This document shows, in pieces, positions 25,165 to 30,417 of a stretch of 64,000 nucleotides of DNA. The notes below the pieces were generated by a model that worked only from the letters and a program-made list of their open reading frames with translations, was not told the DNA's origin and did not search any database. Origin of the DNA: Dehalococcoidia bacterium (GTDB taxonomy: Bacteria; Chloroflexota; Dehalococcoidia; Lucifugimonadales; QGNO01); contig OZ220698.1 of assembly GCA_965116555.1 (NCBI GenBank), positions 1,083,106 to 1,147,105 on the forward strand, read 5' to 3'. The position numbers and the translations under genes are program-made. Numbering within the stretch: the first letter of the stretch is position 1; each line of letters opens with the position of its first letter.

Positions 25165-26598
25165 CTACCCCGGATACCTGCTCCGCCCCCAGAAACCCTC
25201 CGGCAGCTCCAGCAGGTCTCGCACCCCTGCCCTGTCCAGCATCCTCTCCGTTGCCCTTTGCGACACCTCCAGCGCCTCCCTCTCGTCCACGCTCTTCACC
25301 ACGCGACCCTCCATCAGCACCTTCCCGTCCACCATCACCGTATCCACGTCGTGCCCGCTGGCGAAGTTGGTGATGCGGTACACCGGCATGTTCGACGGAT
25401 ATAGATGCGGCTTCTCCATGTCGACCAATATCAGGTCCGCCTTCTTGCCCGCCTCCAGCGACCCCAGCTCGCTCTCCACGCCCAGCGCCCTCGCCGAATC
25501 AATCGTCACCATCTCCAGCACCTTGCCCTGCGGCATGTACGACGGATCGTGAAAGTGCGTCCTCTGGTAGTGCATGCACTGGAACATGTGCCTGAACATG
25601 TCGAAGCCCCTGTCCGGGGCGTTCCCGTCCGAACCGAGTATCACCGTCACCCCTGCGTCTATCAGTTCAGGCACCGGGCACCGGGCCATTATTGCCGCCA
25701 CCGCGCTGGGGTTGTGCACTATCTTGGTGTCCGTCTCCCGGCAGATCTCTATCTCCTCGTCCGTCAACCCCGTTGAGTGCGATAGCAAAGCGTCCGGCCC
25801 CAGTACGCCCAGCTGCTCGTGCGCGAATTTCACCGTTCCCCTGGAGTGCCCGTCCTGCGCGAACATCACCCCGTACTTCCTGGTCAACGACCTCACAGCG
25901 TCCGCCTGCGCCTTGAGCTCCCCCGAATCGACGCGACCGCTTTCCGGGTTGTGCACCGGCAGCATCATCATCAACCGCATCCGGCCTTCCGCCCCGCCGT
26001 GCCATCTCTCTATCAGCGATTCGCTGCTGGCAAGGTAATCCTCGAATCCCACCATCCTCTCCGACCGCTTCTCACCGTTCCACTCCACGTACCTTCTTGG
26101 ATACGGCCCGTTGCTTGGCCCCACTGCCAGGAACTCCCGCGTCCCCATGCGTTCTATGGCCTCGCAGTGCCGCTCTCCGTAAACGGGACTGTCCGACCGT
26201 ACCACCATCGTCCCGCCACCCAGGAAGGTGACGCCCGCCGTCACCCCGAACTTCAGCCGCTCCAACGACGTGAGCAGCGCGTCCGCGTACCAGTACTCCT
26301 CGTCCGTGGCCTCGGCGTATATGCGGTCCGCAGTCTCCGCCCACACCCCCGGACGACCCACTCCCAACGTCTTCACCAGGCTGTGGCCCGCGTGGCCGTG
26401 ACCGTCTATCAGCCCCGGCATGACCACCTTGCCGCTTGCGTCTATCACCCTGCTTGCCCGGTGCCTGGCCTCCACCTCCCCCCTCGGCCCGACCTCCAGT
26501 ATGCGGTCGCCTTCTATTGCCACCGCACCGTTCTCAATGACCCGCCTATCCGGGTCCATGGTTATCACCCATCCACCGGCAACCAGTATGTCAGCCAT
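25165..26598 (-). CDS. Amidohydrolase family protein (SsnA/TrzA-like)
   Basis: MPGLIDGHGH, LGSDG, GSLEAGKKAD. Confidence 0.9.
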   Translation of the reverse strand: MADILVAGGWVITMDPDRRVIENGAVAIEGDRILEVGPRGEVEARHRASRVIDASGKVVMPGLIDGHGHAGHSLVKTLGVGRPGVWAETADRIYAEATDEEYWYADALLTSLERLKFGVTAGVTFLGGGTMVVRSDSPVYGERHCEAIERMGTREFLAVGPSNGPYPRRYVEWNGEKRSERMVGFEDYLASSESLIERWHGGAEGRMRLMMMLPVHNPESGRVDSGELKAQADAVRSLTRKYGVMFAQDGHSRGTVKFAHEQLGVLGPDALLSHSTGLTDEEIEICRETDTKIVHNPSAVAAIMARCPVPELIDAGVTVILGSDGNAPDRGFDMFRHMFQCMHYQRTHFHDPSYMPQGKVLEMVTIDSARALGVESELGSLEAGKKADLILVDMEKPHLYPSNMPVYRITNFASGHDVDTVMVDGKVLMEGRVVKSVDEREALEVSQRATERMLDRAGVRDLLELPEGFWGRSRYPG

Positions 26599-26600
26599 GC

Positions 26601-26963
26601 TTAACCCCCGATTATCGGCCCGTACAGCACCTGGCGTCTGTTTCTGGTGTACGGCCTGACCTGCTCCGGCCATCTGCCAAGCTCCACCGCTTTGGCCCAG
26701 TCGTCGCCCTTCAGCACGTCCGGGTTATCCAGCTCGTACAGCGCCGCGTAGGAAGGCTCGTCGTCGTGCTCGTACACCTGCAGCCCCCCGCCGATTGCTA
26801 TCTCCACCTTGGGGAACCTCTTGAACCGCACCGCCGAGAGCACTCCCGGCACCTTCAACAGCTCCGGCACGTGCTCCTGGTCGTACACCTCGTTGAACAC
26901 GTCCTCCTTACCCGGCTCCACGTCCATCCTGGTAAGCAAAAAGTACCTGCTATCTATCGGCAT
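26601..26963 (-). CDS. Small dimeric alpha-beta barrel protein (DUF4286/EthD-like)
   Basis: FNEVYDQEHVPELLKVPGV, YAALYEL; AGGAGG RBS. Confidence 0.72.
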   Translation of the reverse strand: MPIDSRYFLLTRMDVEPGKEDVFNEVYDQEHVPELLKVPGVLSAVRFKRFPKVEIAIGGGLQVYEHDDEPSYAALYELDNPDVLKGDDWAKAVELGRWPEQVRPYTRNRRQVLYGPIIGG

Positions 26964-26986
26964 CATCTCCTCCTATTCAAATGACT

Positions 26987-27090
26987 GTCATTCTGAGCGC
27001 AGCGAAGAATCCAAAACCTTTGCCCGCAAAATACCATGCCCCCCACCTCGCTCCCGCTCATCCTGAGCTTGTCGAAGGGAATGAGCGGGC
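26987..27090 (+). repeat. Palindromic repeats
   Basis: GTCATTCTGAGCGCAGCGAAGAATCC and CCCGCTCATCCTGAGCTTGTCGAAGGGAATGAGCGGG. Confidence 0.8.
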
Positions 27091-27107
27091 TCACCCCCAC
27101 GACCCCC

Positions 27108-27734
27108 CTACCGCAAGAACGGGTTGCTCCGCCTCTCATCACCCATTGTCGACCCCTCGCCGTGGCCGGGCAGCACAACCGTCGCGTCAGGCAGCGTCAG
27201 CAGCCGCGACTCGATGCTTTCCAGCAACTGCGGCCCGTCGCCGCCATCCAAATCGAAGCGGCCGATGCTCCCTTTGAACAGCGTATCGCCGGTAAACACC
27301 GTCCCCTCCCCGTAAAAGCACACCGACCCCGGCGTGTGGCCCGGCGTTTCAAGCACCCTAAGCGTCACTTCTCCCATGCACAGTTCGTCGCCGTCGCTTA
27401 GAAAGCCGTCGGGCGGTGGCGGCATCTCGTAGTCCGGTATCATCATCGGCGCCCACGACATGCTCGCCGCCATGACCCGCACGTCCGACTGGTGGATCCT
27501 GAACTCCGCGGACGTCCTCTCCTTGATCTCCTTTACCGCCCCATTGTGGTCTCCGTGGCCGTGCGTATTCACCATCAGCGCCACTCTGAGTCCGGCCTCT
27601 TCCACCGCTTGCAGTATCAGGTCGGCCTGCGCTCCGGGGTCGATCAGTATGCACTCCCCTGACTCCTCAGACCCCACGATATACGCATTCTCCGACATGG
27701 AGCCGACCACTACTTTTTTCAGGACTAGGCTCAT
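27108..27734 (-). CDS. MBL-fold metallo-hydrolase (glyoxalase II/YcbL-like)
   Basis: THGHGDH, TPGHTPGS, FTGDTLF, PGHG. Confidence 0.92.
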   Translation of the reverse strand: MSLVLKKVVVGSMSENAYIVGSEESGECILIDPGAQADLILQAVEEAGLRVALMVNTHGHGDHNGAVKEIKERTSAEFRIHQSDVRVMAASMSWAPMMIPDYEMPPPPDGFLSDGDELCMGEVTLRVLETPGHTPGSVCFYGEGTVFTGDTLFKGSIGRFDLDGGDGPQLLESIESRLLTLPDATVVLPGHGEGSTMGDERRSNPFLR

Positions 27735-27777
27735 GTATTACGTAAAGGCACAGCCACCGTCATTCCTAAGCCTCGCG

Positions 27778-27856
27778 CCCCGCTCATGGTGAGCTTGTCG
27801 AACCATATGAGCGGGCACAGCCACAATTGTCATTCTGAGCACAGCGAAGAATCCAA
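27778..27856 (+). repeat. Palindromic repeats
   Basis: CCCGCTCATGGTGAGCTTGTCGAACCATATGAGCGGG and GTCATTCTGAGCACAGCGAAGAATCC. Confidence 0.8.
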
Positions 27857-27877
27857 AGCCCCTGCCCGCCTGCTCCC

Positions 27878-28699
27878 CTACCGCTCCAGCGGATACCCCT
27901 CCTCGTTGGCCCACTCCGCAAACGATGCATCGTAGTTCGCCGCATTCTCGTACCCCAGCAGCTTCAGGGTGAACACTCCGTGCGCCGCACGGATGCCACC
28001 CTGTCAGTACGTGTACACCTGCTGCTCAGGCGTCACCCCCTTCTCCGACAGCATCGACCTGATCTCATCCGCAGGCCTGAACTCCCCCGATTCGACGTCC
28101 ATCACGTCGCTCCATTCCAGGTGCGACGCACCCGGAATGTGGCCGCTGTACTTGTTGCCTCTACTGTTCTCCCCGCTGTACTCATCCGATGCCCTTGTAT
28201 CCCAGATAACCGACCCCTCTTTGCCGATGGCCGTCTTCAATTCGTCAGCCTTCACTATCAGAGACGGGTCCACTTTGGGCGTGAAACGCCTCGGCTCAGC
28301 GGCGCTCGGCCTGTCCGTCATCGCGCGGCCCTCAGCCAGCCACTTTCGCCATCCCCCGTTCAGCACCTTCACGTTTGTATGCCCGTAGTAGCTCAGCACC
28401 CACCACAGCCTCGCCGCGTATATCGAGTGCCTGCCGCTGTAGGCCACCACCAGGGTCTCGTCTCCAATGCCGAGATTGCCCAGAAACTCCGACGCCTCCT
28501 CTGGCGCCATCACGTGCACGCTTCCGTCGCCCTTGATATAGTGGTTCTCTCCCAGGTTCACCGCACCCGGAATGTGCGCCCGGTTGTAAGCGTCCGGAAG
28601 ATCGCAGTCCACTATAACCATGTTGGCGTCGTTCAAATGCGATGCCAGCCACTCCGTATCCACCAGCATTTCCGGATGAGCATAGCCAGTTGTACTCAC
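27878..28699 (-). CDS. Two-domain sulfurtransferase (SseA/rhodanese, COG2897) with in-frame UGA, probably selenocysteine, at the active site
   Basis: HIPGA twice and LNGGWRKW; reading through TGA at 28004-28006 gives QVYTY-U-QGGIRAAH...YDASFAEW...PLER-stop. Confidence 0.9.
27965..28003 (-). promoter_or_regulatory. Candidate bacterial SECIS stem-loop immediately 3' of the UGA
   Basis: mRNA CAGGGUG-gca-UCCGUGC-GGC-GCACGGA-guguu-CACCCUG: two perfect 7-bp stems, apical loop starting with G. Confidence 0.75.
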
Positions 28700-28730
28700 G
28701 ATGAGACTCCTCCCCGCTCAATTTGCCCGA

Positions 28731-28759
28731 ATCCTAGTGACCTGCCCATCCCCTGTCAA
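28731..28759 (-). promoter_or_regulatory. Sigma70-type promoter of the sulfurtransferase gene
   Basis: TTGACA-17 bp-TAGGAT, then GAGGAG RBS. Confidence 0.6.
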
Positions 28760-28796
28760 CATAAGACACATACCCCTGCCCGTTCGCCGACGTGCC

Positions 28797-29000
28797 TGTA
28801 GGGGCGGTTCGCGAACCGCCCTGCTATCCCCCGTTCCCGCTCATCCTGAGCCTGTCGAAGGAAATGAGCGGACACATACCTCTGTCATGCTGAGGAGTCG
28901 GTTGCACCCCATCCGCCCTACACCACTCCCCGCCGACGAAGCATCCCACACCCCCCTTTCGTCATTGCGAGCGCAGCGTAGCAATCTGGTGGCGGCGCGG
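28797..29000 (+). repeat. Palindromic repeat cluster
   Basis: GTAGGGGCGGTTCGCGAACCGCCC, CCCGCTCA unit, GTCATGCTGAGGAGTCGG...CCGACGAAGCATC, GTCATTGCGAGCG unit. Confidence 0.8.
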
Positions 29001-29094
29001 GGGCAGGGCGGCTGCCCCCCTTACCCACCTGCCCGTCTCCCCTTTACGTATCCCCCATTAACCGTTAGCCTATTCGACACGGCCTCAACAGCAC

Positions 29095-30417
29095 ATGACA
29101 GACCTCAACACCATAGTATCCCTCGCCAAGCGACGCGGCTTCGTATTCCAGTCCAGCGAAATCTACGGCGGTCTCGCCTCCACCTACGATTACGGCCCAC
29201 TCGGCGTCGAAATGCGACGCAACATCAAGGACCACTGGTGGCGCACCTTCGTACACAAGCGCGCCGATATGGTCGGCCTCGACGCCGCCATCCTCATGGC
29301 GCCCCAGGTCTGGGACGCCTCCGGCCACACCTCCGCAGGATTCGCCGACCCTCTGGTGGAGTGCCCCGAATGCCGCAAGCGTTATCGCCCTGACCAAATC
29401 GACGACCCGTCTAAGTGTCCCGACGATGGCGTCACCCTCTCCGACCCCCGCATGTTCAACCTCATGCTCAAGACCTTCCTCGGCCCCGTGGAGGACAGCG
29501 CCTCGCAGACCTATCTCCGGCCGGAGACCGCGCAGGGCATCTTCGTCAACTTCCTCAACGTCCTCAACTCCACCCGCAAGAAGCTGCCCTTCGGCATCGC
29601 GCAGATAGGCAAGGCGTTCCGCAACGAGATTACCGTGGGCAACTTCATCTTCCGCACCCGTGAGTTCGAGCAGATGGAGATCGAGTACTTCGTCAAGCCG
29701 GGCGCCGAAGACGAGTGGCTCGACTCGTGGGTTCAAGCCTGCCTCAGCTGGTTCGTCGATTCGGGCATCTCTGAGGACAACCTCCGTGTCCGACAGCACG
29801 ACCCCGATGAGCTTGCCCACTACGCCAAGGCCACCTACGACATCGAGTACCGCTTCCCCTGGGGCTGGGGCGAAATCCAGGGTATAGCCAGCCGCACCGA
29901 CTACGACCTCAAGGCGCACTCGCAGGCCAGCGGCGTCGACCTCACCTACTTTGACGACGACGCCCAACAGCACTACCACCCCTACGTCATCGAGCCTTCC
30001 GCAGGCGTGGACCGACCCCTCCTCGCCTTCCTCTTTGACGCCTACAAGGAGGAGGAAGCGCCCACCGGCGGAGGTAAGATGGAAAAGCGAGTCGTCCTCA
30101 AGCTGCACCCCGTCATAGCACCCGTCAAAGTGGCCGTCCTGCCCCTCTCCCGCAACGAGAAGCTCGTGCCCAAAGCCAGAGAGGTCTTCGACATGGTCAA
30201 CGACCGCTTCGTGGCCCAGTACGACGACTCACAGAGCATCGGCCGCCGCTACCGCCGCCAGGACGAGATCGGCACCCCCCTCTGCGTCACCGTCGACTTC
30301 CAGACCGTGGAAGACGACAACGCCGTCACCATCCGTGACCGCGACACCATGGAACAAGTCCGCGTCCCCATCCCGGACCTCCTCCCCACCCTCACACAAC
30401 GCCTACCCATCCCGTAA
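29095..30417 (+). CDS. glyQS: Glycine--tRNA ligase (alpha2 homodimeric type)
   Basis: KRRGFVFQSSEIYGG, YLRPETAQGIF, FIFRTREFEQMEIE, SIGRRYRRQDEIGTP. Confidence 0.96.
   Translation: MTDLNTIVSLAKRRGFVFQSSEIYGGLASTYDYGPLGVEMRRNIKDHWWRTFVHKRADMVGLDAAILMAPQVWDASGHTSAGFADPLVECPECRKRYRPDQIDDPSKCPDDGVTLSDPRMFNLMLKTFLGPVEDSASQTYLRPETAQGIFVNFLNVLNSTRKKLPFGIAQIGKAFRNEITVGNFIFRTREFEQMEIEYFVKPGAEDEWLDSWVQACLSWFVDSGISEDNLRVRQHDPDELAHYAKATYDIEYRFPWGWGEIQGIASRTDYDLKAHSQASGVDLTYFDDDAQQHYHPYVIEPSAGVDRPLLAFLFDAYKEEEAPTGGGKMEKRVVLKLHPVIAPVKVAVLPLSRNEKLVPKAREVFDMVNDRFVAQYDDSQSIGRRYRRQDEIGTPLCVTVDFQTVEDDNAVTIRDRDTMEQVRVPIPDLLPTLTQRLPIP

Follow-up and report, generated by a model that had tools for sequence, protein, structure and literature searches.

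A gene on the minus strand of the DNA analyzed here, a stretch of 64,000 nucleotides from the Dehalococcoidia contig OZ220698.1 (hereafter the window), looks like a rhodanese sulfurtransferase gene that stops short of its own active site. The question raised by this locus is whether the in-frame TGA found there ends a short protein, marks a gene in decay, or specifies the catalytic residue. When the standard bacterial code (table 11) is applied, the ORF 28699..28004 (minus) encodes 231 amino acids and ends at the TGA at 28006-28004. When the TGA is read as selenocysteine (U), the frame stays open for 41 more codons, up to the TAG at 27880-27878, and the product has 273 amino acids. The initial annotation had described this extension of 41 sense codons past the TGA, together with the active-site loop and the YDASFAEW signature that it encodes, and all of these elements are present on the minus strand as described. 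The protein around U232 reads ...EQQVYTY-U-QGGIRAAHGVFTLKLLGYENAANYDASFAEWANEEGYPLER, with VYTY-U-QGGIRAAHG as the loop, and the motif ...NYDASFAEW... is located near the C-terminus of the 273-amino-acid rhodanese, in the portion encoded past the UGA. Table 1 lists the features of the locus.

Table 1. Features of the rhodanese locus (positions are those of the window; coordinates with the prefix G000:C1 are those of the whole contig).
Feature	Position	Strand	Remarks
Full CDS of the predicted selenoprotein	27878..28699	minus	GTG start 28699-28697; Sec-UGA is codon 232; TAG stop 27880-27878; 273 aa
In-frame UGA, U232	28004..28006	minus	Catalytic Cys position, C-terminal rhodanese domain
N-terminal rhodanese domain, inactive repeat	28334..28657	minus	G000:C1:1111439-1111762
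C-terminal catalytic rhodanese domain, interrupted by the UGA	27905..28249	minus	Loop U-Q-G-G-I-R; G000:C1:1111010-1111354; 57.4 bits; 1 TGA inside
SECIS element (predicted), 39 nt directly 3′ of the UGA	27965..28003	minus	Lower stem 28003-27997 with 27971-27965, plus upper stem-loop
Upper stem-loop UCCGUGC-GGC-GCACGGA, 17 nt	27977..27993	minus	Apical loop 27986-27984; 10 nt after the UGA; presumed SelB-binding core
Shine-Dalgarno-like GGAGGAG	28707..28713	minus	7 nt upstream of the GTG start; putative, read from the sequence
Sigma-70-like promoter match TTGACA-17-TAGGAT	28731..28759	minus	10/12 positions; consensus match only
Downstream MBL-fold hydrolase, 208 aa	27108..27734	minus	Context gene; membership in a unit not supported

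Pfam PF00581 matched the 273-amino-acid protein in two stretches (127.3 bits), and the closest solved structure was the Thermus rhodanese PDB 1uar (E 1.6e-47, query residues 5-271). In the structure-sequence alignments, U232 stands opposite the catalytic Cys of 1uar (VVYCRIAERSSH) and of other solved rhodaneses, which is the position to which the initial annotation had assigned the UGA. The N-terminal rhodanese repeat has no Cys at the aligned active-site position. Two rhodanese domains, a catalytic residue in the C-terminal loop, and an inactive N-terminal repeat constitute the tandem-domain layout of the COG2897/SseA type. The Thermus enzyme has the same tandem-domain layout and a six-residue active-site loop of the form C-x4-R, but it has Cys where UGA/Sec is found here, and its loop is CRIAER rather than UQGGIR. 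The NCBIfam equivalog model of 3-mercaptopyruvate sulfurtransferase, NF008557, scored 118 bits against a cut-off of 250. The protein is then related to that family but is not a member of it, and for this reason its substrate was not assigned from the family score.

A TGA at this position could have arisen by nonsense mutation in a Cys-rhodanese gene undergoing decay, or it could be a miscalled base, and the homologues bear directly on this possibility. The aligned codon is TGA in 113 of 130 homologous loci and TGC or TGT in the remaining 17 (the 130 loci comprise 110 loci, 107 with TGA and 3 with TGC/TGT, and 20 further loci, 6 with TGA and 14 with TGY). The alternation of TGA and TGC among orthologues for which the initial annotation proposed to look is found exactly at this codon. 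A search of 61 related genomes produced 35 matches, in 34 genomes, that carry a single in-frame TGA and range from 96% down to 38-39% identity; the other matches have no in-frame TGA. The record titles of the relatives name Dehalococcoidia/Chloroflexota, SAR202, and Binatia, and include marine, sponge, and groundwater MAGs. The loop motif [YH]-U/C-Q-[GA]-G-I-R-A-A-H is common to the Sec and Cys forms, which constitute a classical Sec/Cys pair. Past the UGA, the frame is open for 40-52 codons in each of the 96 distinct Sec-form sequences, and for exactly 41 codons in 81 of them. The entropy of this region is 1.25 bits at the third codon position versus 0.53 and 0.56 bits at positions 1 and 2. 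Such variation, biased toward the third position, indicates translation of the tail and selection acting on the encoded protein, and by this measure the tail evolves as coding sequence. A decaying gene is difficult to reconcile with the same TGA, one per gene, at 113 loci whose proteins are 38-96% identical, or with a downstream frame that is kept open in every distinct sequence and varies in this manner.

The genome that contains the window also has two Cys paralogues, at C1:1809529-1810356 (37% identical) and C1:1255976-1256725 (30% identical). Like the Sec rhodanese, these are tandem-domain rhodaneses, but they have TGC at the catalytic codon, the loop CRIGERSS, and no hairpin after that codon (L144 forms two of the seven upper pairs of the hairpin described below). 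Among the four rhodanese-domain proteins of the genome, the TGA is found in this one only. In one related genome, a second, divergent rhodanese (L149, G010:C2:717956-718765; 39% identical) likewise carries TGA at its catalytic codon, with a hairpin, UGCGCGGUC-GGC-GACCGCG, whose shape is the same and is maintained by several compensatory changes.

Independent sequence data are also at odds with an assembly error. Contigs from four metagenome runs cover the site, and no variant is listed at 28004-28006. One of these contigs (X1 record 3) spans 27977-28825, TGA included, with 0 differences. TGC or TGT in the reads had been mentioned in the initial annotation as an observation that would speak against recoding; the metagenome contigs carry TGA. 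Over 27952-28039, the word depth of about 9 rises abruptly into the hundreds or thousands, which is expected if a near-invariant SECIS/active-site stretch is common to many community members. The nearest database proteins are short calls of 231-234 amino acids that cover 85% of the query, and the public calls, of 231-239 amino acids and with the NCBI name 'sulfurtransferase', belong to clusters of 120, 48, 226, and 97 members. The prediction that the gene would be mis-annotated is thus borne out, since the public protein sets hold it as UGA-truncated entries. Gene callers that stop at the TGA and these short entries are what can be said in favor of a pseudogene or an assembly error. Considering the recurrence of the codon, the state of the downstream frame, and the identical independent contig, we regard the probability of this explanation as negligible.

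The 39 nt that follow the UGA had been proposed to fold into two 7-bp stems with an apical loop starting with G, and this was confirmed. The lower stem is CAGGGUG/CACCCUG, the upper stem is UCCGUGC/GCACGGA, each is perfect, and the apical loop is GGC. For the single sequence, the fold of 57 nt has an MFE of -26.7 kcal/mol. Of 200 shuffles, 6 were as stable or more so (z = -2.16), a modest excess over chance. An alignment (A1) of 84 distinct TGA-form sequences was used to assess the conservation of the structure. The upper helix is 93.7% paired, and compensatory changes are found in four of its seven pairs. Pair 19-25 is GC in 75 sequences, UA in 9, and unpaired in 0, and its U-A variants are found at three or more places on a FastTree tree. 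None of 500 shuffles reached the covariation score, although this control overstates the significance because the sequences are relatives. Slid controls paired at 33-57% compared with 84% for the observed hairpin. Conservation of the lower helix is weak: pairing is seen in 75.0% of its cells, and about every second sequence forms pairs 4-42 and 7-39. In the farthest Sec forms, L148-L150, the stem is retained through several further compensatory changes.

The comparison with the Cys forms showed that the structure goes with the TGA. The upper pairs formed were 6.56 of 7 in the 84 Sec forms versus 2.94 of 7 in the 17 Cys forms, and the hairpin MFE was -9.9 versus -4.0 kcal/mol (the value for the Sec forms is the mean for nt 11-33 over the 84 sequences). 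The Arg codon of the loop is CGT in 82 of the 84 Sec forms versus 2 of the 17 Cys forms, both Ala codons are nearly fixed as GCG in the Sec forms, and the third-position entropy over the hairpin codons is down to 0.64 bits. Cys forms that have the identical IRAAH peptide (e.g., L128) use different codons, and the stem is lost. The check for stem covariation that the initial annotation had suggested therefore came out positive in the TGA forms, with the stem lost in the 17 Cys forms.

The mechanistic archetype of a bacterial SECIS is that of E. coli fdhF, a hairpin inside the coding region and directly 3′ of the UGA. Its small loop has G in the first positions and is carried by a short upper stem located some 10-11 nt past the UGA. 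The rhodanese hairpin differs from it in sequence, and its GGC triloop lacks the bulged U of fdhF. The bSECIS model, as given in the Fig. 2 legend of a 2026 review, has a loop of 3-9 nt on an upper stem of 4-16 bp, G at the first two positions of the loop, a distance of 16-37 nt from the UGA to the loop, and an MFE of -7.5 kcal/mol or lower (PMC13188914). The rhodanese hairpin is within all of these limits, with a 3-nt loop (GGC) that starts with GG, a 7-bp stem, and a spacing of 17 nt. A search of Rfam at E ≤ 1 over 26500-29500 found no SECIS family; the single match was at chance level and unrelated to the hairpin. The sequence comparisons identify the hairpin as a conserved bacterial SECIS element, covarying in the Sec forms and missing from the Cys forms.

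It could still be proposed that the TGA is a true terminator, that the 231-amino-acid product is functional without the active-site loop, and that the hairpin has another role, e.g., in mRNA stability or attenuation. Termination does compete at any Sec-UGA, and some short product is expected, especially under selenium limitation. A short protein as the intended product is nonetheless very improbable: selection at the protein level acts on the 41 downstream codons, which supply the rest of a domain known from solved structures; the hairpin accompanies TGA and has disappeared from the TGY forms; and the TGA form tracks the Sec machinery, as described next.

The genome surveyed is a single 2.37-Mb contig, 93% complete. 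The search for selA, selB, selC, and selD that the initial annotation had called for found all four in this genome, above the curated cut-offs: a tRNA-Sec (selC) with the anticodon TCA (65.5 bits), SelA (469 bits), SelB (346.8 bits versus a cut-off of 242), and SelD (383 bits), which has a U of its own in LASCAG-U-AAK. The SelD gene is located at G000:C1:248035-248955, with the TGA at C1:248065 and, 27 nt after the UGA, a hairpin of 8 bp capped by a GGG loop. An alternative genetic code in which TGA is a sense codon was ruled out, because TGA is an ordinary stop that closes 278 of the 770 frames of at least 400 codons in the genome. Among the relatives, full-length SelA is present in 52 of the 61 genomes and in 32 of the 34 genomes with the TGA form. 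The two TGA-form genomes without it have completeness values of 81% and 74%; tRNA-Sec is present in each, and one of them also has a SelB that exceeds the cut-off. In two 97%-complete genomes, SelA, SelB, and tRNA-Sec were searched for and none was found, and these have Cys forms only. The Sec machinery tracks the TGA form of the rhodanese.

In-frame TGA codons at redox-motif positions were also found in 6 of the 12 AhpC-TSA matches of the genome. These six AhpC-TSA/peroxiredoxin-like genes are located at G000:C1:609963-610340, 2331297-2331668, 1815224-1815574, 801148-801507, 871166-871525, and 870360-870716; two of them adjoin, and the motifs include TTW-U-PTC, TGG-U-E, and TPG-U-M. Judging from their sequences, the six genes probably encode further selenoproteins. 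The genome has at least 8 TGA-bearing candidates, and the BSepDB paper names MAGs of Dehalococcoidia in which the selenoprotein genes number 49 and 46 (PMC13326102).

The presence of the machinery is also relevant to the nature of the inserted residue. The initial annotation allowed for 'Sec (or Cys)', and the identity of the residue lies beyond sequence analysis, so that the UGA might be read through as Cys or another standard residue, by Cys-tRNA(Sec) or near-cognate suppression, and not as Sec. Several observations argue for Sec instead, i.e., the complete selABCD set, a SECIS within the published constraints, the other genes of the genome with TGA at classical redox-Cys positions, and the fact that lineages needing Cys use TGY, with the hairpin gone. 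Insertion of a standard residue is consequently regarded as quite improbable.

Taken together, the UGA/Cys homology, the covarying hairpin, the Sec machinery, and the coding-type tail strongly support the Sec reading. The gene very probably encodes a two-domain rhodanese sulfurtransferase with selenocysteine, from UGA 232, as the catalytic residue. The initial annotation had proposed Sec recoding, and on each point that it had named as a potential refutation (the orthologous codon and hairpin, the Sec machinery, and the reads) the outcome was in favor of Sec. In the proposed mechanism, the RNA just past the UGA would have two functions, as the code for the active-site loop QGGIRAAHG and as the SECIS. 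SelB-GTP-Sec-tRNA(Sec) would bind the upper stem-loop and bring Sec to the ribosome in place of the release factor, and the insertion at UGA 232 would result in a complete C-terminal catalytic domain. The selenolate, held in the U-Q-G-G-I-R cradle, would then accept a sulfane sulfur, with thiosulfate or a persulfide as the donor, forming a Se-S intermediate that would hand the sulfur to an acceptor, and the enzyme would otherwise work like a Cys rhodanese. Selenium has a lower pKa and is a better leaving group, which would speed both rhodanese half-reactions.

The claim that Sec-containing rhodaneses had already been reported in bacteria was correct. According to the relevant passages of the publications, a Sec 'rhodanese-related sulfurtransferase' of COG2897 was described in the Sargasso Sea in 2005, with three genes (PMC1088965), and again in GOS in 2008 (PMC2398784); the Olavius symbionts had a Sec 'Sulfurtransferase COG2897' in 2007 (PMC1976440); a 2022 review entered the Sec rhodanese as COG2897 (SseA) (PMC9312934); and the 2026 review lists a rhodanese-like 'form 4, UxxG' (PMC13188914). 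The protein described here agrees with this family, as far as the published descriptors go, in having PF00581, a two-domain architecture, a catalytic Sec, and UxxG (here U-Q-G-G); membership is based on those descriptors and not on an alignment to the example records. SECIS covariation and a Dehalococcoidia-wide distribution do not appear in the cited passages of the COG2897 papers. In the literature searched, Sec rhodaneses come up in bioinformatic catalogues only, whose supplementary tables may list the family in SAR202 or Dehalococcoidia, and no biochemical study of a Sec rhodanese was found in that literature. This kind of protein has then been known since 2005, and the lineage was already known to be rich in selenoproteins. 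Another rhodanese-domain selenoprotein is represented by NF041203 (rhodanese_LYCAU, 'rhodanese-related (seleno)protein'), which corresponds to form 3, CxU, of the review. It differs from the protein described here in being a single domain of about 126 amino acids with a CxU motif, and membership in NF041203 was ruled out (36.4 bits versus a cut-off of 115).

The initial annotation also suggested that the downstream MBL hydrolase could be part of the same persulfide/selenium-handling unit, and this part of the proposal was not supported. The spacer between the rhodanese and MBL genes is 143 nt and includes REP-like repeats. The best PDB match of the MBL protein was 2xf4, a YcbL-type glyoxalase II (137.8 bits, full length), and its score with GSH_gloB, 97.1 bits, was below the cut-off of 200.8. 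Persulfide dioxygenases 4ysb and 4chl matched with 91.7 and 74.5 bits, over residues ~110-207 only. An MBL gene was present within the fetched flank in 10 of the 94 distinct loci, five of these with spacers of 6-30 nt. The synteny of the MBL and rhodanese genes is local and operon-like, in a few lineages only. A role of the MBL protein as a persulfide dioxygenase partner was not supported by the weaker, partial matches and the pairing in 10 of 94 loci. Outside the rhodanese coordinates, no neighbor cluster was found in more than 14 of the 94 loci, and many of the neighbor clusters are spurious antisense frames of GC-rich DNA. Since there is no conserved neighbor, the rhodanese is treated as a stand-alone gene, and from its sequence it appears to have its own promoter-like site and ribosome binding site.

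Other elements are found in the intergenic spacers that flank the rhodanese and MBL genes. An element of 48 nt that contains an internal palindrome, CCCGCTCAT..N..ATGAGCGGG, occurs three times, at 27046-27093, 27772-27819, and 28829-28876. With up to six mismatches allowed, its 37-nt core is matched 17 times in the genome, and the metagenome contig depth over the element is in the thousands, with many contigs joining or breaking there. It looks like a REP/MITE-like dispersed repeat common to many community members. A second short dispersed repeat, GTCATTCTGAGCGCAGCGAAGAATCCAAA, is located at 26987-27007, 27829-27849, and 28961-28981 (also 26986-27027 and 27828-27869). It has five related copies within 2.2 kb and often adjoins the palindromic 48-nt element, and a 29-mer of it has 42 genome matches at six or fewer mismatches. 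Between the MBL and amidohydrolase genes there is an ORF of 121 amino acids (26601-26966, minus) that overlaps the start region of the amidohydrolase ORF (25165-26673). It has a relative in 6 of the 94 loci, and a Pfam search of this ORF produced no match.

The same decoding could also serve another job, in which the Sec rhodanese carries selenium, as a Se-Se or S-Se adduct, for selenophosphate synthesis. Rhodaneses bind selenium in vitro, which counts for this possibility, as does the number of TGA-bearing candidates in the genome. Its relatives are, moreover, among the most selenoprotein-rich bacteria (PMC13326102). However, the rhodanese gene, at 1,111 kb on the contig, is not linked to selD (248 kb), selA (806 kb), or selB (322 kb) and has no conserved neighbor. 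In addition, Cys forms of the same clade are found in genomes where the Sec machinery was not found, which suggests that the ancestral job is independent of the Sec trait. A selenium carrier is therefore unlikely, and sulfur transfer by a catalytic Sec is the preferred reading.

On the FastTree tree, 2 Cys forms are nested among 96 Sec forms in one clade, and four or more state changes are required; the tree came with long-branch warnings and no bootstrap, so that the direction of the Sec/Cys changes is a lead only. The Sec forms L064, L076, L083, and L088, with a near-identical upper stem-loop, are on contigs titled Candidatus Binatia, except that one of the four is titled 'uncultured Enterobacteriaceae', probably a mislabelled bin. 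These Sec forms cluster together within Dehalococcoidia sequences on the tree. Their sequences suggest that the UGA-SECIS cassette may have moved whole between phyla. When a stem pair changes from G-C to U-A, Ala is necessarily replaced by Ser and His by Asn, the two substitutions being coupled (IRAAH becomes IRSAN). Since the SECIS occupies codons that also specify the active-site loop, base pairing in the RNA would have an influence on protein evolution as well. A joint reading, in which the Sec form is ancestral and dominant in a large Dehalococcoidia clade, RNA pairing steers the protein, and a transfer of the cassette involving Binatia is possible, is put forward tentatively, with somewhat less than even confidence.

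The Sec rhodanese does not open a new class of system. It strengthens, as a well-supported case, the view that Dehalococcoidia use selenium heavily, and it is a clean example of a SECIS that overlaps the active-site loop of an enzyme, where RNA structure and catalytic residues constrain each other. In the databases, this gene and its clustered relatives, which number in the hundreds, appear as shortened, catalytically dead sulfurtransferases, and because of these entries metabolic reconstructions of Dehalococcoidia misread what is, on the evidence above, very probably a functional selenoenzyme. If the Sec form is indeed ancestral and dominant, sulfane-sulfur handling in these Dehalococcoidia would be selenium-dependent.
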